Shown: piece after piece, positions 3,862 through 11,817 of the stretch
Layout of the letters: every line of letters starts with the position of its first letter
Numbering within the stretch: the stretch's first letter is position 1
Origin: a virus
DNA: 27,591 nt
Strand: one strand, 5' to 3'
UHGV virus genome: UHGV-0217794
Notes under the pieces: generated by a model
Told to the model about the DNA's origin: nothing
Databases searched by the model: none
The model's input: the letters and a program-made list of their open reading frames with translations, nothing else
Program-made: the position numbers and the translations under genes

Positions 3862-4911
3862 GTGCGGGTATTACTTCGACCTGTTCTGGTACCGGAACTC
3901 GGGCTGGTGGTCGTTAAGCCGGGCCGTGAATCCATGCCGGTATTCCACAATACCCGGTTACTGGTGGAGCCGGAACCGAAAAGCATGCGTAATCTGCCGT
4001 CCGGGGTCGTTCCTGCCGCTCGCCAGCCGCTGGTGGAAGACAAAACATTGCTGCCGTTTTTCAGTAACGCACGGGTGATTCGTGCTGCTGGTGGTGCTGG
4101 TGCATTGTCTGACTGGCTGTTGCGCCATATTAAATCCTGCCAGTGGCCACACGGCGATTATCATCACAGCGAAACCGTCATTCACCGTTATGGTACCGGC
4201 GCAATGGTGTTGTGCTGGCACTGCGACAACCAACTGCGTGACCAGACATCCGAATCACTCGAGCAACTTGCTCATCAAAACCTGTCAGCATGGATGATTG
4301 ACGTCATCGGTCACGCAATAAGCGGTACGCAGGAGCGTGAATTATCTCTGGCTGAATTATCCTGGTGGGCGGTCCGCAATCAGGTGGCGGACGCGCTACC
4401 GGAAGCGGTATTACGTCGTTCGCTGGGGTTGCGTGCGGAAAAAATCCGCTCAATGTACCGTGAAAGCGACATCGTACCGGGAGAGCAGACCGCCACCAGC
4501 ATACTGAAACAGCGCACAAAAAATCTTGCACTGTTGCCTCACGCCCACCAGGAACAACACCCACTACAGGAAAAGACGGTGGTAAGCATTGCCGTTGATC
4601 CTGAGTCTCCGGAATCTTTTATGAAACGACCTAAACGTCGCCGCTGGGTTAACGAGAAATACACACGCTGGGTGAAGACACAGCCGTGTGCGTGTTGTGG
4701 TAAGCCAGCCGACGATCCCCATCACCTGATTGGTCATGGTCAGGGCGGAATGGGGACAAAATCTCACGATATTTTCACGCTACCGCTGTGTCGGGAGCAT
4801 CACAACGAGCTTCATGCGGATCCGCTGGCGTTCGAAGAAAAGCATGGTTCTCAGGTTGATTTAATCTTTCGTTTTCTTGATCACGCCTTTGCAACTGGCG
4901 TGCTTGGGTAA
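3862..4911 (+). CDS. DUF968/YdfU-like protein with C-terminal Cys/His (HNH-like) motif, 349 aa
   Basis: C-terminus CACCGKPADDPHHLIGHGQGGMGTKSHDIFTLPLCREHHNELH; same size and position as Qin prophage YdfU (before rusA and Q); GTG start with GGAGG RBS. Confidence 0.65.
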   Translation: MRVLLRPVLVPELGLVVVKPGRESMPVFHNTRLLVEPEPKSMRNLPSGVVPAARQPLVEDKTLLPFFSNARVIRAAGGAGALSDWLLRHIKSCQWPHGDYHHSETVIHRYGTGAMVLCWHCDNQLRDQTSESLEQLAHQNLSAWMIDVIGHAISGTQERELSLAELSWWAVRNQVADALPEAVLRRSLGLRAEKIRSMYRESDIVPGEQTATSILKQRTKNLALLPHAHQEQHPLQEKTVVSIAVDPESPESFMKRPKRRRWVNEKYTRWVKTQPCACCGKPADDPHHLIGHGQGGMGTKSHDIFTLPLCREHHNELHADPLAFEEKHGSQVDLIFRFLDHAFATGVLG

Positions 4912-4923
4912 AAGAGGTGACTG

Positions 4924-5298
4924 ATGCTCATAGATTTGGTTTTACCTTACCCGCCGACGGTGAACACTTACTGGCGACGCCGTGGCAGCACATATTTTAT
5001 CTCGGAGGAGGGAAAGCGTTATCGCCGGGCTGTGGCGCTTATTGTTCGCCAGCAGCGGCTGAAATTAAGCCTGTCCGGAAGGCTGGCGATAAAGGTGATT
5101 GCAGAGCCACCGGATAAGCGTCGTCGCGACCTGGACAATATCCTGAAAGCACCGCTGGATGCGCTGACGCATGCGGGAGTGTTAATGGACGATGAGCAGT
5201 TTGATGAAATCAATATCGTTCGTGGTCAGCCAGTATCTGGTGGACGTCTGGGGGTGAAGATTTACCCCATAATGCATGAAGAGCAGGTCAAAAAATGA
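4924..5298 (+). CDS. rusA: crossover junction endodeoxyribonuclease RusA (Holliday junction resolvase)
   Basis: 124-aa protein starting MLIDLVLPYPPTVNTYWRRRG with conserved acidic residues (RRDLDNILKAPLDAL); AAGAGGTGA RBS; typical position just upstream of Q. Confidence 0.88.
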   Translation: MLIDLVLPYPPTVNTYWRRRGSTYFISEEGKRYRRAVALIVRQQRLKLSLSGRLAIKVIAEPPDKRRRDLDNILKAPLDALTHAGVLMDDEQFDEINIVRGQPVSGGRLGVKIYPIMHEEQVKK

Positions 5299-6116
5299 AA
5301 CTGGAAGATTTACCGAAATACTACTCCCCAAAATCCCCTTGCCTGACCGATGCATCGGCCTCAACGTCAAAAGATGCGCTGAGTATCACTGATGTGATGG
5401 CCGCGCAGGGCATGACACAGAATCGGGCTGAGATGGGGTTTTCTGCGTTCCTGGGGAAAATGGGCATCAGTATGAATGACAGGGCGCGGGCAACAGAATT
5501 ACTGGCAGATTATGCACTCAGTCGGTGCGATCGTGTGGCGGCGTTGAGAAAACTTCCGGCAGAAATAAAACCGGTAGTGATGCGCATTATGGCTTCGTAC
5601 GCTTTTGAGGATTATGCCCGCAGCGCAGCGAGTAAAAAGCAGTGCCCTTGTTGCTATGGGGAAAAATTTATTGAAAGCGTAGTTTTTACAAACAAGGTCC
5701 AGTATCCGGATGGTAAGCCGCCGGTATGGGCAAAGTGTACGAAAGGTGTGTATCCGTCTTACTGGGAAGAATGGAAAAAAGTCAGGGAGGTGGTAAAAGT
5801 TGCCTGTCCGGAGTGTGGCGGAAAGGGTGAGGTTTCCACCGCCTGTAAGGATTGCCGTGGGCGTGGTGTCGCCATTCACCGTGAAGAGTCGGTAAAACGT
5901 GGTATGCCTGTTATCAGAGACTGCCAGCGTTGTGGTGGTCGTGGCTATGAAAGACTACCATCAACGGAGGCATTTAATGCTATATGCGAGGTGACAAACC
6001 AGATAACACGCGCGTCATGGGAAAAAACAGTTAAGAAATTCTATGATGCGCTGGTGACCCGGTTTGATATTGAAGAAGCATGGGCTGAGCGGCAGTTAAA
6101 AAAGGTAACTAGGTAA
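5295..6116 (+). CDS. late-gene antiterminator, Q family (non-lambda type, multiple CxxC zinc motifs)
   Basis: 273-aa protein with CPCC...C and CPECGGKG...CKDCRGRG...CQRCGGRG motifs; ATGA overlap with rusA; directly followed by a promoter-terminator unit and the late region. Confidence 0.8.
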   Translation: MKLEDLPKYYSPKSPCLTDASASTSKDALSITDVMAAQGMTQNRAEMGFSAFLGKMGISMNDRARATELLADYALSRCDRVAALRKLPAEIKPVVMRIMASYAFEDYARSAASKKQCPCCYGEKFIESVVFTNKVQYPDGKPPVWAKCTKGVYPSYWEEWKKVREVVKVACPECGGKGEVSTACKDCRGRGVAIHREESVKRGMPVIRDCQRCGGRGYERLPSTEAFNAICEVTNQITRASWEKTVKKFYDALVTRFDIEEAWAERQLKKVTR

Positions 6117-6120
6117 CAAG

Positions 6121-6160
6121 GTTGATTTTTCCGGAATCTGTGGTAAATTCATCATAATGA
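6121..6160 (+). promoter_or_regulatory. candidate late promoter (PR'-like) / Q-utilisation region: -35 TTGATT (6122-6127), -10 TAAATT (6144-6149)
   Basis: sigma70-like hexamers directly downstream of Q and about 50 nt upstream of an intrinsic terminator, the lambda PR'-qut-tR' layout; the -10 match is weak. Confidence 0.35.
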
Positions 6161-6198
6161 TGGGCTTTTTATGCCTGACGTTAGAAGAGTTTCTACAA

Positions 6199-6220
6199 CC
6201 CGCCGCCGAGCGGGTTTTTT
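6199..6220 (+). terminator. intrinsic terminator (tR'-like): stem CCCGC/GCGGG followed by six T
   Basis: GC-rich hairpin CCCGCcgccgaGCGGG followed by TTTTTTATT, read directly. Confidence 0.6.
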
Positions 6221-6259
6221 ATTGCGGAATTAATTACGGACCGTTATTATTCTGCTCAC

Positions 6260-6335
6260 GGCCCTTTAGCTCAGTGGTGAGAGCGAGCGACTCATAATCG
6301 CCAGGTCGCTGGTTCAAATCCAGCAAGGGCCACCA
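6260..6335 (+). tRNA. ileZ: tRNA with CAU anticodon, most likely tRNA-Ile2 (lysidine-modified, reads AUA; ileX/ileZ-like); elongator tRNA-Met not excluded
   Basis: 76-nt cloverleaf: acceptor GGCCCTT/AAGGGCC, D-arm GCTCAGTGGTGAGAGC, anticodon loop CTCATAA, T-arm GCTGGTTCAAATCCAGC, 3' ACCA; close to my recollection of E. coli ileX. Confidence 0.85.
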
Positions 6336-6435
6336 TCACAAACCGCCATTAGCTTATCAGGAAGAGCAGACGACGCGATAACAGGGTTGTTGGTGCGGGG
6401 GCGGGTCCCCGATGGCGGTCCATTATCGGTATTCA

Positions 6436-6512
6436 GCGTTGTTAGCTCAGCCGGACAGAGCAATTGCCTTCTAAGCAATCGGTCACTAGTTCGAATCCAG
6501 TACAGCGCGCCA
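6436..6512 (+). tRNA. tRNA-Arg (anticodon UCU, reads AGA/AGG; argN/argO/argU-like)
   Basis: 77-nt cloverleaf: acceptor GCGTTGT/ACAGCGC, D-arm TAGCTCAGCCGGACAGAGC, anticodon loop with TCT, T-loop GTTCGAATCC, 3' GCCA; one mismatch in the T-stem. Confidence 0.8.
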
Positions 6513-6622
6513 TATTCATTCTTCCAGATTCCTTCCGGCAGAGCCTTATACTGAAATATACTTGGCTCAGGATCTTGTTGAAAATATTATATGTTTGTCA
6601 AAAATAAAAGTTCTGTTAAGTA

Positions 6623-6976
6623 TTGATTGAGTGTTTGTTATACCGTCTAATGGTTTTTTCAGCATTAAATATTTATCATTCATATGGTGTGGGTAGAGTG
6701 AATATTGATGAGGCGTCGGGGTGTTTCATCCTTAGGCAGCGTATTGATATAGTCAATGCAGCACGAGCAAAGGCCTTCAGCCGTTTGACAGTTTTGTTTT
6801 GTACTCCTGATCGTCTTTCGGGAAGAGACGTTATTATTCTGAATAGTGATGCTATACAGAGGGTTTGCGATGAGTTCATGGTTGCTAATTCAGAATTATT
6901 TGCTCTTGTTCAGGAGTACAACAGAATAGCCAGGACCTGTGGTATGGATGAACTTCGGATTACTCATCTGGGGTAG
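6623..6976 (+). CDS. hypothetical ORF, 117 aa, doubtful
   Basis: Open frame in the AT-rich moron region but TTG start and no convincing Shine-Dalgarno; may be a gene remnant. Confidence 0.25.
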   Translation: MIECLLYRLMVFSALNIYHSYGVGRVNIDEASGCFILRQRIDIVNAARAKAFSRLTVLFCTPDRLSGRDVIILNSDAIQRVCDEFMVANSELFALVQEYNRIARTCGMDELRITHLG

Positions 6977-7450
6977 ATACATATCTGGATTATCACCTGT
7001 TACGGTAAAAAGTTATTGCTTACTGTTTTTGTGAATGGCATTGCAGCAGCCGGATAATGTCAGTGCTGGCTGACGGTGTGCTGGTGGCGGGTGTGGTGGT
7101 TATTGCTTTCCCGTTGCTGAAAAAGAAAACGCCAGACTGTTAGCCGGGTATCAGTTAGCGGGAGAAATTTTTAAATACTTCACAATTCAGGCGGTTGACT
7201 GTTGTCTGGTTTGCGGGGAGTTTGTTAAAAGAAACTGGCATGGTGAATCCCCCTGTGCGGAGGGGCAATCAGCGAGTAGGTATATGGGATAATCGCGTAT
7301 TCAGGTGCTGGTACTGAATTCACCGGGAGGCACCCGGCACCATGCACTTCAATAGATTCTCTCCACATTATGGATATTCTTTCAGAATATCCCACGCAGA
7401 CTTTGTGTAAATGTTAACAAATGTGCGTTTTATTTGATCTGATTCGCTGT

Positions 7451-7480
7451 TTGAGCGTCCAAAACAACGGTATATATAAT
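7451..7480 (+). promoter_or_regulatory. candidate sigma70 promoter for the lipoprotein moron (-35 TTGAGC 7451-7456, -10 TATAAT 7475-7480)
   Basis: Consensus -10 and good -35 with 18-nt spacer, about 30 nt upstream of the GAGG RBS of the lipoprotein gene. Confidence 0.45.
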
Positions 7481-7509
7481 CCTTTACTATATGACATATG
7501 TGAGGAAAA

Positions 7510-7938
7510 ATGGGTTTTCGTAGCGCATCAATTCTTACGTTGATTATTAGTGGGATTATTATCGGGTGCACTGATGCTGTATCGACAAATTATCATGACC
7601 GTACATCATATTACTCCGATAAAGCAATAGAGACACAGTATGTGAGTTCATCTGAACGTACTTCTGATGTTAGTGAGGATATCCGTCTGTATGCCCATCA
7701 AATCAAGAGCGCCATCGAAAAACAGTTCGGGGATGCGAGTAAGTATTCAGGAAAAGAGTGTACACTGAGAATGCATATGGCCCCGAATGGCCTTCTACTG
7801 GAGGTTAAAAGAGAAAGTGGAGACCTCGATTTATGTCGTGAAGCGATGAATGCGATAAAGAATGCTGATATACCTGCCCCCCCTTCGCCGGAAGTATATA
7901 AAGTATTTCAAAATGGGGTGCTGGATTTTAAACCCTGA
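7510..7938 (+). CDS. lipoprotein with TolA domain-III-like C-terminal domain (142 aa)
   Basis: Signal peptide with lipobox IIGC; C-terminal about 85 aa (YAHQIKSAIEKQFGDASKYSGKECTLRMHMAPNGLLLEVKRESGDLDLCREAMNAIKNADIPAPPSPEVYKVFQNGVLDFKP) aligns residue-by-residue with my recollection of the E. coli TolA C-terminus (YAGQIKSAIESKFYDASSYAGKTCTLRIKLAPDGMLLDIKPEGGDPALCQAALAAAKLAKIPKPPSQAVYEVFKNAPLDFKP). Confidence 0.8.
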   Translation: MGFRSASILTLIISGIIIGCTDAVSTNYHDRTSYYSDKAIETQYVSSSERTSDVSEDIRLYAHQIKSAIEKQFGDASKYSGKECTLRMHMAPNGLLLEVKRESGDLDLCREAMNAIKNADIPAPPSPEVYKVFQNGVLDFKP

Positions 7939-8088
7939 TATTTATTGTTTTGTAATAAACGGTTTCGGCTTAGGTTTGTTCTGACACAACTACGGCACTG
8001 AGCTAAATTTAGCGGATAGTCAGCTCTGAGCCAGTGGCGGACGTAACAACTACTATTGCTGAGATTTTAATGGATTGAGGAGCAAGAA

Positions 8089-8484
8089 GTGGGATTAAAG
8101 AAAATCGTTATGTTGACTTTTTGGGTCGGTTTTGTTGCGGGATGCACACCTTTACACCCTTCAGATTGCCACAAAACTACTGCTACAGGTAGTTGCAGTT
8201 CAGGACGCTGGGATGATCAGGATGAATGGGGGGCGCAAGCGCGGGGAATCAGAGCTGCAATTAATGCCAAACTTGATGAGCCGCATAACTGGAAAGGGAA
8301 AAAATGCAGGTTGCATATGGAATTCTCTCAGGATGGCACGGCGTTAAAAATATCTACCAGTAACGGTGATAAAGCCTATTGCGAAGCGATAAAGTCCGCA
8401 GCTCATAAAGCCAAATTTCCGGCCTTCAACAATCCGGAAGTCTACAGAGATTTTCAGAAATCTGGCTTTGACATGCGAGGTTAG
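8089..8484 (+). CDS. second lipoprotein, divergent paralog of the TolA-III-like lipoprotein (131 aa, GTG start)
   Basis: Signal peptide with lipobox VAGC; C-terminus shares the K-C-L ... G ... GD ... C ... A ... A-FP ... VY ... F ... D pattern with the upstream lipoprotein; GAGGAG RBS 6 nt before GTG. Confidence 0.75.
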   Translation: MGLKKIVMLTFWVGFVAGCTPLHPSDCHKTTATGSCSSGRWDDQDEWGAQARGIRAAINAKLDEPHNWKGKKCRLHMEFSQDGTALKISTSNGDKAYCEAIKSAAHKAKFPAFNNPEVYRDFQKSGFDMRG

Positions 8485-8609
8485 CTCTTCAATTACTATA
8501 TCTCATTCATAGCAAACTGACAGATTTGATGATGTTCTATATACGAAACCTGTGATGTCAAGTCTGAGCTAATACAAATAAACATAATATCAGAGAAATA
8601 CATTTTATT

Positions 8610-8632
8610 AGCTCGCTACGGCGAGCTTTTTA
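8610..8632 (+). terminator. intrinsic terminator closing the lipoprotein moron (stem AGCTCGC/GCGAGCT, loop TACG, T-run)
   Basis: Perfect 7-bp hairpin followed by TTTTTAT, read directly. Confidence 0.6.
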
Positions 8633-8735
8633 TATTGCATCGTCTCCAGCATATATATCAATTATGGCTCTGATTGATGTGTCTGGAAGCCTACACATAA
8701 TAACTATGCCATCCGTTCCGTGCGGAGGTGAGGCT

Positions 8736-8951
8736 ATGAAATCCATGGACAAAATTTCAACAGGCATTGCCTACGGCACCTCCGCAGGCAGTGCTGGCTA
8801 CTGGTTTTTACAGCTGCTCGATAAAGTCACGCCCTCACAGTGGGCAGCAATAGGTGTGCTGGGTAGCCTGGTATTTGGCCTGCTGACGTACCTGACAAAC
8901 CTTTATTTCAAGATTAAAGAAGACAGGCGTAAGGCTGAGAGAGGAGAGTAA
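8736..8951 (+). CDS. pinholin, phage 21 S21-like (dual-start MKSMDK motif)
   Basis: [26 protein letters not shown] ... [35 protein letters not shown] closely matches my recollection of S21 (71/68 forms); GGAGGTGAGG RBS. Confidence 0.9.
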
Positions 8952-8955
8952 TCCA

Positions 8956-9300
8956 ATGACTCAAGTATACGAACTGGTTGTGAAAGGAGTCCGTAATTTT
9001 GAGAATAAAGTTGCGGTAACTTTAGCCTTACAGGACAAAGAACGCTTTGACGGTGAGATTTTTGACCTTGATATCACTATGGATCGTGTTGAAGGTGCTG
9101 CACTGGAGTTTTATGAGGCAGCAGCCAGAAGGAGAATCAGACAGGTGTTCTTGGATGTTGCTGCCGGGTTATGTGAAGGGGATGAGCAGTCGCCGGAAAA
9201 GCGCCCCATAATTTTAGAGGCGCAGAATGTGTGGATAACCTACAAAGGAAAGCTACCAGGAAGAATTACTGGTTATCTGAAGACTCCGCCGGAATGTTAA
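8956..9300 (+). CDS. hypothetical protein between holin and endolysin (114 aa)
   Basis: ATG 5 nt after the holin stop with AGGAGAG RBS; unknown function; same slot as Qin ydfR but homology not verified. Confidence 0.55.
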   Translation: MTQVYELVVKGVRNFENKVAVTLALQDKERFDGEIFDLDITMDRVEGAALEFYEAAARRRIRQVFLDVAAGLCEGDEQSPEKRPIILEAQNVWITYKGKLPGRITGYLKTPPEC

Positions 9301-9538
9301 TTTTAACAGCATATTTCTCTTCCAGTAATGCCACCAGCCACTTGAAGGAATTTTGTTGTTCCTGGGACCATTTGGGGCTGTGTGATTCAAGCTGGAGCGA
9401 TGCCAGTGTTGGTTGCATTTGTTCCCTGGGAATTGACAATGCCAGATATGAAAATGCGACAGTAAGGGCATTAACATCATCCCGAAGCCTGGAAATGCAG
9501 TCGAGCAACTCCTGAAGAGAAATGGTGTTATTGTCCAT
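9266..9538 (-). CDS. hypothetical reverse-strand protein (90 aa) inside the lysis cassette
   Basis: ATG at 9536-9538 preceded by a strong AAGAGGA Shine-Dalgarno at optimal spacing; convergent with and overlapping the 3' end of the upstream gene by 35 nt. Confidence 0.45.
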   Translation of the reverse strand: MDNNTISLQELLDCISRLRDDVNALTVAFSYLALSIPREQMQPTLASLQLESHSPKWSQEQQNSFKWLVALLEEKYAVKINIPAESSDNQ

Positions 9539-9643
9539 AAATAATCCTCTTGATTGTATTTACCTGTTCTCCGCCTGATTCAACAGGTTGGGACAGATAA
9601 ACATATCCTGGGTTCAGAAATCGATAAATCCTGATAAATATCC

Positions 9644-10177
9644 ATGAACGTAAAAGTCAAATACGGCCTGTCGGCTGCCGTTCTGGCGCTGATTGGTGCT
9701 GGTGCATCTGCTCCCCAGATACTTGACCAGTTTCTGGACGAAAAAGAAGGTAACCACACAATGGCATACCGTGATGGTTCCGGCATATGGACCATCTGTC
9801 GGGGTGCCACAGTGGTGGATGGAAAACCCGTTTTTCCCAATATGAAACTGTCGAAGGAAAAATGCGACCAGGTTAACGCTATTGAGCGTGATAAGGCTCT
9901 GGCATGGGTGGAGCGCAATATTAAAGTACCACTGACCGAACCACAAAAAGCGGGTATCGCGTCATTTTGTCCCTATAACATTGGCCCCGGTAAGTGTTTT
10001 CCGTCGACGTTTTATAAACGGCTGAATGCTGGTGATCGTAAAGGTGCATGCGAGGCGATTCGCTGGTGGATTAAGGACAGGGGGCGTGATTGCCGCATTC
10101 GTTCAAATAACTGTTACGGTCAGGTTATTCGTCGTGATCAGGAGAGCGCGTTAGTGTGCTGGGGGATCGACAGATAA
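9644..10177 (+). CDS. SAR endolysin (lysozyme, T4-lysozyme/R21-like with N-terminal signal-anchor-release domain)
   Basis: N-terminal Gly/Ala-rich weakly hydrophobic segment (GLSAAVLALIGAGASA) followed by a lysozyme-like domain; paired with a pinholin as in phage 21. Confidence 0.88.
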   Translation: MNVKVKYGLSAAVLALIGAGASAPQILDQFLDEKEGNHTMAYRDGSGIWTICRGATVVDGKPVFPNMKLSKEKCDQVNAIERDKALAWVERNIKVPLTEPQKAGIASFCPYNIGPGKCFPSTFYKRLNAGDRKGACEAIRWWIKDRGRDCRIRSNNCYGQVIRRDQESALVCWGIDR

Positions 10178-10940: not shown

Positions 10941-11257
10941 AAACCGGCCAAGGATAATCCGCTGAAGATTCGCCGGGGCTAGAGAGAGCCAAAGCTTTAA
11001 TTGACACCATTACTCATAGCAAGGCAATGCATCGTTTTTATGAGGTCAATAGATGCCTGATTTATTTCTGTGCTCCGTATCGTCGCTGTATTCCTTCGTT
11101 AACCATGAGTGTAGTCCGACGGGGAGCACGAGTGTATGGGAATAATAAAAAAAGATACACACCTGGGTTTACCGCTTTTATGCTTCGCGGGTTTGCTCTT
11201 CATGCAGCTAGTCCGGTACAGAGGTGTATGAAACCGGACTGCTGATTTAATTAATTC

Positions 11258-11662
11258 CTATATTAATGGTCTGTTATTTTCAACATCTTCCATGTACAAA
11301 AGATCGTGATCAAACGAATAGTAAAACCTTATGTTTTTATCTATATCTGTAATCCAGCGATAAACACCTGCTTTTGCTAAAGTGAGACGATATTGATGAA
11401 ATGTAGATTTACCTGATATAAGATTTCTGGCTGCTTCTTTAATTAATTCTGGTTTCTTTGATGTGCTAACTTTCACAAGTCCTCTACTGCCTCGAACTAA
11501 TAAAATATTATCATCATGAGTAATTAGTCTTATATTATCAGTAGCCAGATAATAAATATAATGCGCAATATTATGGCGTTTTAATTCGGAGTAAAACCAT
11601 GGGAAGTATAAATTACTTCTAACGTGTTCGAATATCTCTTGAAAAATATCTGCCTGCTCCAT
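11258..11662 (-). CDS. hypothetical protein, reverse-oriented moron at the bor-equivalent locus (134 aa from ATG 11662)
   Basis: Opposite strand to all flanking late genes; visibly AT-rich (not computed); AAGAGGA Shine-Dalgarno upstream of ATG; aromatic-rich sequence with no family I recognise. Confidence 0.6.
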   Translation of the reverse strand: MEQADIFQEIFEHVRSNLYFPWFYSELKRHNIAHYIYYLATDNIRLITHDDNILLVRGSRGLVKVSTSKKPELIKEAARNLISGKSTFHQYRLTLAKAGVYRWITDIDKNIRFYYSFDHDLLYMEDVENNRPLI

Positions 11663-11817
11663 CAGGAAATATCCTCTTGTCACTGCTACTTCTTACCATG
11701 AGCTTAGATAGTTTGCATGATTTGTTCTCTCACATCAATCTGATCCGACCTCATTGAGGTGGGCGTTGTGAATACCTGATAAGAAATGTGGGTCCTCCCA
11801 ATGGGGGAGGCTGGCAC

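Follow-up and report, generated by a model that had tools for sequence, protein, structure and literature searches.

Two predicted TolA domain III lipoproteins in the late region of a lambdoid prophage and their possible role as decoys

The UHGV virus genome UHGV-0217794, a stretch of 27,591 nucleotides that we refer to throughout as the window, carries a unit of two small genes between its late antiterminator gene Q, followed by two tRNAs, and its holin gene. Gene 1 and gene 2 encode proteins of 142 and 131 amino acids (aa), and the C-terminal ~85 residues of both are confirmed as domain III of TolA (TolA-III). Group A colicins and filamentous phages, among them the Ff, If1, IKe, and CTXφ types, share this domain as their hub for entry. 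Neither gene encodes a full TolA, given the small size of the products and their lack of the N-terminal transmembrane anchor and the long helical domain II, and their location between the phage Q/tRNAs and the holin is outside the tol-pal operon. The unit is real and well delimited, its domain assignment is correct, and a decoy function is plausible.

The setting is that of a lambdoid late region, in which the order is Q, a tR'-like terminator, two tRNAs, the two-gene unit, the holin, the endolysin, and Rz-like genes. The features on which the argument depends are these:

5295-6116, plus strand: Q, the late antiterminator, an open reading frame (ORF) whose counterpart in the identical E. coli 55989 prophage bears the annotation "antitermination protein"
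6197-6216, plus strand: tR'-like intrinsic terminator directly 3' of Q, with a 7-bp stem containing 5 GC pairs and then a T-run
6260-6335, plus strand: tRNA(CAT) found by ARAGORN, tRNA-Ile in RefSeq
6436-6512, plus strand: tRNA-Arg(TCT) found by ARAGORN
7451-7480, plus strand: predicted sigma-70 promoter-like site, TTGAGC-18-TATAAT, with 10/12 consensus matches
7510-7938, plus strand: gene 1, a predicted lipoprotein of 142 aa
8089-8484, plus strand: gene 2, a predicted lipoprotein of 131 aa with a GTG start at 8089
8610-8635, plus strand: predicted intrinsic terminator, with a hairpin at 8610-8627 (7-bp GC-rich stem, UACG loop) and then a U-run
8736-8951, plus strand: holin (essD-type), the first gene of the lysis cassette

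The promoter-like site is the best scoring one in a scan of 6000-9000, and the predicted terminator, whose hairpin has a folding energy of -13 kcal/mol (z = -3.8), stands between the two-gene unit and the holin gene. A sequence-only reading made earlier had proposed a near-consensus sigma-70 promoter at 7451-7480 and an intrinsic terminator at 8610-8632, and both proposals hold as predictions, the former from consensus matching and the latter from the hairpin and T-run. The same reading had placed the unit between Q/tRNAs and the holin, in the slot equivalent to that of stx, and this position is borne out by the ORFs, the tRNAs, and the location of gene 1 relatives. It had also called the unit AT-rich, which is correct relative to the upstream region (GC content 0.39-0.46 vs. 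0.50-0.55) but only moderately so next to the adjoining lysis genes (0.44-0.48). Its view of the unit as a self-contained moron gains from the presence/absence polymorphism described below and, as far as consensus matches can show, from the flanking signals. The window closely corresponds to a prophage of E. coli 55989, and the TolA-III unit is identical in both.

Two lipoprotein-type proteins with a shared domain

Gene 1 encodes a signal peptide (residues 1-19), a predicted lipid-bearing Cys20, a linker of ~34 residues rich in serine, threonine, and tyrosine, and a TolA-III domain at 55-142. Its domain scores 82.6 bits (2.4e-23) against the Pfam family PF06519, which has a gathering cutoff of 25 bits, and phmmer matches it to the TolA-III entries 1s62, 3qdp, 2x9a, and 1tol of the PDB at ~1e-27. 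Aligned to E. coli TolA 334-421, 52 of the 88 residues are identical (59%), in keeping with the earlier claim that this protein follows the TolA C-terminus almost motif for motif. The tyrosine and two isoleucines of TolA Y340, I344, and I348 are kept at equivalent positions and the β3 strand reads VLDFKP, in which LDFKP is identical to E. coli TolA, whereas the colicin A (ColA) box LLDIKP has become LLEVKR. The fold assignment of gene 1 is sequence-based, a single-sequence AlphaFold model being poor (predicted local distance difference test, pLDDT, 56.6) and set aside. On these comparisons, gene 1 appears to mimic TolA-III of E. coli closely.

Gene 2 has a predicted lipid-bearing Cys19, a conserved linker that contains cysteines, and a TolA-III domain at ~45-131. 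Its scores are lower, at 54.6 bits (1.3e-14) against PF06519 and 5e-9 against the PDB TolA-III entries (phmmer). An AlphaFold2 (AF2) model built from an alignment of 37 sequences has a pLDDT above 90 over residues 40-131, and the Foldseek comparison that the sequence-only reading had called for superposes this model on 2x9a, 3qdp, 3qdr, and 1tol with root-mean-square deviations of 1.0-1.2 Å and target-normalized template modeling scores of 0.85-0.89. The top structural match is 2x9a, the complex of IF1 g3p with TolA. The β3 strand of gene 2 reads GFDMRG, so that this edge strand is proline-free. Alignments A1 and A2 show no variation in the TolA-III cysteine pair. Taken with the scores for gene 1, these matches uphold the original assignment of the C-terminal ~85 residues of both proteins to TolA domain III.

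Both proteins satisfy a lipoprotein rule of the PROSITE PS51257 type, which requires positive charge in the n-region, hydrophobicity in the h-region, and a cysteine at position 15-35 that closes a lipobox [LVI][ASTVI][GAS]C, and the lipoboxes IIGC and VAGC recognized earlier are thereby substantiated. The N-terminus of gene 1 is MGFRSASILTLIISGIIIGC/TDA, with the lipobox IIGC, Cys20, and Thr at +2, and that of gene 2 is (GTG)MGLKKIVMLTFWVGFVAGC/TPL, with the lipobox VAGC, Cys19, and again Thr at +2. Sorting of lipoproteins is governed by the +2 rule. Asp is at +2 in neither protein, and their +2 residue predicts outer-membrane sorting for both. The rule is passed by 115 of 120 members of the gene 2 family and by 6 of 8 members of the gene 1 family, and a lipobox without Asp at +2 is a feature of both families. 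For gene 2, the assignment depends on the choice of start codon: RefSeq/PGAP starts the gene at ATG 8110 (124 aa), with which the protein loses its charged n-region and does not pass the lipoprotein rule. We consider GTG 8089 the better start because it is preceded by a GAGGAG Shine-Dalgarno sequence, a plasmid homolog has ATG at the equivalent codon, and the resulting protein passes the rule.

The automatic names of these genes call for some care. RefSeq calls gene 1 "cell envelope integrity protein TolA," which is an over-annotation because the protein has neither domain I nor domain II, lies outside the tol-pal operon, and scores 107.8 bits against NF007065, below the cutoff of 213. It does pass TIGR02794 (75.6 vs. 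a cutoff of 59.45), through its C-terminal domain alone. Gene 2 falls below both cutoffs, with 53.7 bits for NF007065 and 47.2 for TIGR02794, and the NCBIfam matches span only positions 293-386 out of the 387 in the profile.

A second element of gene 2 is its linker, C-x-PLHPSxCHKTTATGSCSSGRWDDQDEWG (residues 20-44; 8146-8220), which is near invariant over at least eight genera in alignments A1 and A2 and contains two extra conserved cysteines and an acidic W...W motif. Its ratio of nonsynonymous to synonymous substitution rates (dN/dS) is as low as that of the domain or below it, and AF2 confidence is low there. This linker looks like a second functional module. We considered the linker motif SSGRWDDQDEWG as a mimic of the colicin TolB box and rejected it, since its key residues and W-W spacing do not match the box, DG[ST]GWSSE.

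Two families of separate origin and their distribution

The two proteins are only 29% identical to each other. The sequence-only reading had taken the second gene for a divergent paralogous copy of the first, and this part of it does not stand: tandem duplication is ruled out by the low identity, by relatives of gene 1 that occur alone, and by the fact that gene 2 is common to plasmids as a block with tight borders. By sequence, gene 1 and gene 2 are best regarded as two independently acquired families. The gene 1 family is small and restricted to Escherichia, with members that are 65-91% identical and under purifying selection (dN/dS 0.34-0.36). Its other members stand alone in the stx slot of prophages resembling Stx phages, where the order is Q, tRNAs or other cargo, the tolA-like gene, nanS-p (SASA esterase), DUF1378, DUF826, and the holin. 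A recent capture of the 3' end of the host tolA was likewise rejected as a source of gene 1, for megablast gave no match to chromosomal tolA in 5,426 genomes and the protein identity is only 59%. The gene 2 family is under strong purifying selection (dN/dS 0.08-0.12). It is a separate and older family, marked by a conserved additional motif at the N-terminus, and may have a different or additional ligand.

The exact 1.3-kb unit (at least 99% identity) is present in 774 of 5,426 complete E. coli genomes (14%), and any match, whether to part of the unit or to the plasmid homolog, in 1,341 of them. Of 50,697 phage records, 562 match the window, but mEp460_ev081 is the only one that carries the unit and the only one that tblastn found among the 50,697. 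The unit stands between conserved modules, the same slot is filled by other cargo in relatives, and this presence/absence polymorphism among phages is typical of morons. A scan of IMG/VR yielded 80 loci whose gene 1 matches are all 99-100% identical and thus add no diversity, and a Foldseek search of the BFVD viral structures with the gene 2 model gave no match at E <= 0.001. Given the absence of a BFVD match and the single phage found by tblastn, the domain is rare in catalogued phages.

Beyond phages, 584 clusters matched at E <= 1e-3 when 1.84 billion cluster representatives (50% identity) were searched with a profile. Among the best 150 of these there are 95 proteins of at most 170 aa, at least 60 of which have a lipobox. 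The many short representatives with a lipobox, together with the plasmid versions, indicate that a lipoprotein signal, a short linker, and TolA-III form a recurrent and diverse architecture. The family members that bear a name belong to Klebsiella, Enterobacter, and Serratia; every one of the names was assigned automatically. The PHROGs match is phrog_5772, "unknown function," and full-text literature searches brought up only passing mentions and no functional study. The earlier statement that no such phage system has been described therefore agrees with the literature searches, PHROGs, and PADLOC, although the domain itself had already been named, with no function attached, by databases such as RefSeq and Pfam.

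Members of the gene 2 family are widespread on plasmids. Hundreds of E. coli plasmids carry a gene to which the block 8059-8487 is 87-88% identical in nucleotide sequence, and an 88% identical protein occurs in ~600 PLSDB records. Homologs are found on IncF, IncI-gamma/K1, and IncK2/Z plasmids, and 488 of 917 plasmid matches are typed conjugative. On pO157, which is typed non-mobilizable, the homolog (5815-6246 of the stretch examined; ~88% aa identity) follows psiB, psiA, and hok. On the IncK2/Z (7965-8396) and IncI-gamma/K1 (8965-9396) plasmids it starts 68 bp 3' of the relaxase gene in the same orientation. Other plasmid-borne TolA-III proteins are also lipoproteins, with the lipoboxes LTAC, ITAC, and VAGC. 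Two 8-kb contigs of metagenome-assembled genomes, labeled Lachnospiraceae and Treponemataceae, also contain an 88% identical gene 2 homolog; they are most likely mis-binned fragments of enterobacterial plasmids and provide no evidence for the family beyond Enterobacterales.

On chromosomes, the gene 2 family (69-89% identity) is found in Enterobacter, Leclercia, Lelliottia, Raoultella, Klebsiella, Citrobacter, Yokenella, Buttiauxella, and Serratia, as single-gene inserts whose context differs between species. Some of these inserts adjoin defense genes, which in Klebsiella indica encode a PARIS AriAB fusion (1e-180), in Leclercia adecarboxylata PtuA (7e-139), in L. tamurae an ATPase-Toprim/PtuA-like protein, and in Serratia marcescens NsnA/GmrSD together with a HEPN protein. 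Within the locus stretches, the AriAB gene lies at 7146-8774 (L121), the PtuA gene at 7089-8156 (L114), the ATPase-Toprim gene at 6541-8508 (L107), and the NsnA/GmrSD gene at 6957-8736 (L009). The scan for such neighbors covered large flanking ORFs, and its first batch was picked by eye; other flanks contained integrases, an omptin, a YadA-like adhesin, AAA_33 kinases, a full-length tonB, or nothing. The association of the gene 2 family with defense genes is suggestive, not decisive. In a third Serratia family, the TolA-III gene directly follows type I-F cas genes (Cas7f/Cas6f).

A possible decoy function and its rivals

We tentatively favor the hypothesis, possible though short of probable, that both proteins act as outer-membrane-anchored periplasmic decoys of TolA-III against Tol-dependent colicins and the g3p of filamentous phages. 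The N1 domain of g3p, colicin N (ColN), and TolB share one site on TolA-III, the C-terminal β3 strand (A415-K420), to which each adds a β-strand through the backbone, a promiscuous mode of binding in which the roles of D418 and K420 have been defined. ColA binds 375-LLDIKP-380, and in helix α2 the residues Y340, I344, and I348 are important (PMC4339652). The dissociation constant of ColN and TolA is 1 µM, compared with 40 µM for TolA and TolB (PMC4339652). Given this difference, an uncoupled copy of the domain could titrate invaders preferentially. The decoy hypothesis also draws on the retention of these binding determinants in gene 1, on the purifying selection acting on both families, on the g3p complex as best structural match of gene 2, on the defense genes next to some chromosomal loci, and on the moron-like anatomy of the unit.

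We envisage that the unit's own promoter would drive its expression in the lysogen, with the terminator keeping read-through off the holin gene, and that after induction Q-modified polymerase from pR' would read through and raise expression of the unit. The proteins would be exported and lipidated by Sec, Lgt, LspA, and Lnt, DsbA would oxidize the conserved cysteine pair, and linkers of ~30 residues would tether the domains between the outer membrane and the peptidoglycan. There the decoys would meet the translocation domains of colicins or g3p-N1 ahead of the energized TolA of the host and would capture them through β-strand addition, possibly along with the N-termini of colicin-activated TolB. 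A captured ligand would not be imported, because the decoys are uncoupled from TolQR and the proton motive force. Furthermore, since parasitic ligands bind TolA-III more tightly than TolB does, a modest level of decoy could block invaders with little harm to Tol-Pal.

Levengood-Freyermuth and coworkers reportedly found in 1993 that wild-type cells into whose periplasm TolA's C-terminal domain was exported became colicin-tolerant and leaky. A natural arrangement that bears on import comes from Klebsiella. On small ColRNAI plasmids of this genus, the gene for a TolA-III lipoprotein (PF06519, 2.4e-24) overlaps by 4 nt that for a secreted protein consisting only of a TonB C-terminal domain (TonB-CTD; PF03544, 8.9e-11), and next to the pair lie the genes for a colicin-like tRNase bacteriocin, for immunity to it, and for lysis. 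In the Klebsiella pneumoniae ColRNAI plasmid NZ_CP028788.2, this operon lies at 4908-5641 of the stretch examined and the TonB-CTD protein has a Sec signal; the TolA-III query has matches on hundreds of plasmids from Klebsiella. Unless they interfere with import, free-standing copies of the two import hubs next to a bacteriocin are hard to explain. On Klebsiella IncF plasmids, the TolA-III gene is paired with one for a periplasmic thioredoxin-fold protein, a partner that fits a disulfide-bonded periplasmic product. The pili of conjugative plasmids that carry gene 2 are exploited by TolA-dependent filamentous phages.

A broader hypothesis, which we regard as conceivable though doubtful, is that lipoproteins consisting only of TolA-III, with or without partners consisting only of the TonB-CTD, form a widespread and unrecognized envelope immunity on prophages and on conjugative and bacteriocin plasmids, decoying both import hubs. 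About one quarter of sequenced E. coli would then be protected against colicins that depend on Tol or Ton and against filamentous phages specific for pili, and genes 1 and 2 would have complementary ligand ranges.

Several observations weigh against the decoy hypothesis. Gene 2 is only ~32% identical to E. coli TolA-III and has neither Y340 nor the ColA box, and its strong conservation across genera, linker included, looks more like the signature of a conserved host partner than of arms-race mimicry, as far as sequence can indicate. A decoy that bound the TolB N-terminus should also carry an envelope cost. When the upstream regions of variants with gene 1 only were aligned, they were non-homologous and the site at 7451-7480 was not kept there. 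The unit proteins matched 0 families in PADLOC, plasmid F was examined and has no homolog of gene 2, and the association with defense genes is modest, such genes adjoining only ~4 of 22 chromosomal loci of the gene 2 family (PADLOC).

The main rival holds that the two proteins are modulators of Tol-Pal, which would bind the TolB N-terminus, Pal, or CpoB, damp Tol-Pal, and loosen the link between outer membrane and peptidoglycan; the phage could gain from more vesicles, from Rcs and capsule induction leading to broad phage resistance, or, with transcription from pR', from easier envelope disruption and virion release. We judge this unlikely. In its favor, overproduction of TolA-III in the periplasm makes cells leaky. 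The unit is part of the late transcript that depends on Q and is placed directly 5' of the holin, endolysin, and spanin, the cross-genus conservation of gene 2 agrees with a conserved host target, and gene 1 has an intact version of the β3 strand that TolB uses. Proline mutants of this strand in TolA that do not bind TolB show a full tol phenotype with a destabilized outer membrane (PMC4339652). Against this, binding of TolA to TolB is weak (40 µM), so that competition would need high levels of decoy, and the predicted promoter and terminator of its own suggest that the unit is expressed in the lysogen and not solely late. The cost that a chronic tol phenotype would impose contrasts with the presence of the unit in 14% of complete E. 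coli genomes, and many species also retain the gene as a lone chromosomal gene. Finally, modulation leaves the pairing with a TonB-CTD protein beside a bacteriocin operon unexplained.

It is rather improbable, in our view, that gene 2 at least is an ordinary accessory envelope lipoprotein of Enterobacteriaceae picked up as cargo, gene 1 then being an independent pick-up of a TolA fragment. Through its TolA-like domain and its conserved Cys-loop/WDDQDEW linker, gene 2 could in this case have a part in host physiology, for instance as a partner at the outer membrane in a process linked to Tol, Ton, or peptidoglycan. Its family does occur as a stand-alone chromosomal gene in the nine genera named above, at many loci with metabolic neighbors and no mobile-element or defense genes, and its low dN/dS (0.08-0.12), with a linker as constrained as the domain, fits a role in host physiology. 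However, the chromosomal context varies between species in a manner resembling single-gene insertions, the gene recurs at ~88% identity on several unrelated types of mobile element, and it is absent from E. coli K-12 and from most E. coli genomes (1341/5426 with any match). The large family of stand-alone lipoproteins with TolA-III suggests instead a recurrently selected architecture.

That gene 2 is a factor of transfer or establishment, remodeling the donor or recipient envelope for passage of the pilus or DNA and later co-opted by the phage, is very improbable: its position in the leading region of pO157 after psiB, psiA, and hok, its codirectional start 68 bp past the relaxase gene of IncK2/Z and IncI-gamma/K1 plasmids, and the 488 of 917 plasmid matches typed conjugative are offset by its retention on the non-mobilizable pO157, by the efficient transfer of plasmid F without it, by related genes on small mobilizable ColRNAI plasmids and on chromosomes, and by the fact that lambdoid phages are not known to need Tol.

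Relation to known systems and neighboring regions

The nearest known relative of the two proteins is TolA domain III itself (E. coli TolA 325-421; PDB 1S62, 1TOL, 3QDR, 2X9A, 6S3W), with which they share family, fold, and the cysteine pair, gene 1 having an identical LDFKP. They differ from TolA in that they have neither the transmembrane domain I nor the helical domain II and are hence uncoupled from TolQR and the proton motive force; they have a lipoprotein signal instead, are encoded by a prophage outside the tol-pal operon, and both fall below the NF007065 cutoff. Engineered periplasmic TolA-III and overproduced g3p or colicin translocation domains, which reportedly make cells tolerant to colicins and phages, offer a functional likeness, in that an uncoupled periplasmic copy of one partner of TolA and invader blocks Tol-dependent import. 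Those constructs are soluble, overexpressed, and laboratory-made, whereas the unit proteins are natural, predicted to be lipid-anchored, mobile, and conserved.

In their proposed role, the unit proteins would resemble Cor (phi80, N15, HK022), Llp (T5), and TraT (F), which are small outer-membrane lipoproteins of mobile elements that protect the carrier. They have no sequence relationship to these proteins, with no match to them in Pfam, PHROGs, or PADLOC. Proteins of the Cor/Llp/TraT type block an outer-membrane receptor (FhuA or OmpA), whereas the unit proteins would mimic a periplasmic co-receptor. If true, this would be a simple defense principle, co-receptor mimicry in the periplasm in place of receptor blocking at the surface, of which we found no description in the literature searched. 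It would bear on the ecology of colicins and klebicins, on bacteriocin therapeutics, on hosts for phage display, and on how conjugative plasmids cope with pilus-specific phages. If tuning of Tol-Pal were true instead, the proteins would offer a natural means of control over vesiculation and the stability of the outer membrane.

The moron locus of Stx phages provides the closest parallel in position. The slot is the same, with stxAB located between Q/tRNAs and nanS-p/holin, and the logic of an own promoter, here a predicted one, combined with read-through from pR' under Q would be shared as well; the cargo differs, being the StxAB toxin there and envelope lipoproteins here.

Between tRNA-Arg and the promoter-like site (6513-7450) there is an unannotated ORF of 117 aa (6623-6976), and the annotation of E. 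coli 55989 places a tiny DUF3927 gene (~7057-7143) and a minus-strand gene fragment in this interval, which looks like the remnants of past cargo turnover in the slot. The window and the E. coli 55989 prophage differ by an insertion or deletion of ~300 bp at ~9300-9650, downstream of the holin/DUF1327 region, which shifts the endolysin coordinates. Just 3' of the lysis cassette, at 11000-11800, the GC content is 0.33-0.39, and a minus-strand ORF of 141 aa (11258-11683) has a counterpart in E. coli 55989 that is annotated as a DUF1398-family gene; this low-GC patch may be a second moron-like insert.

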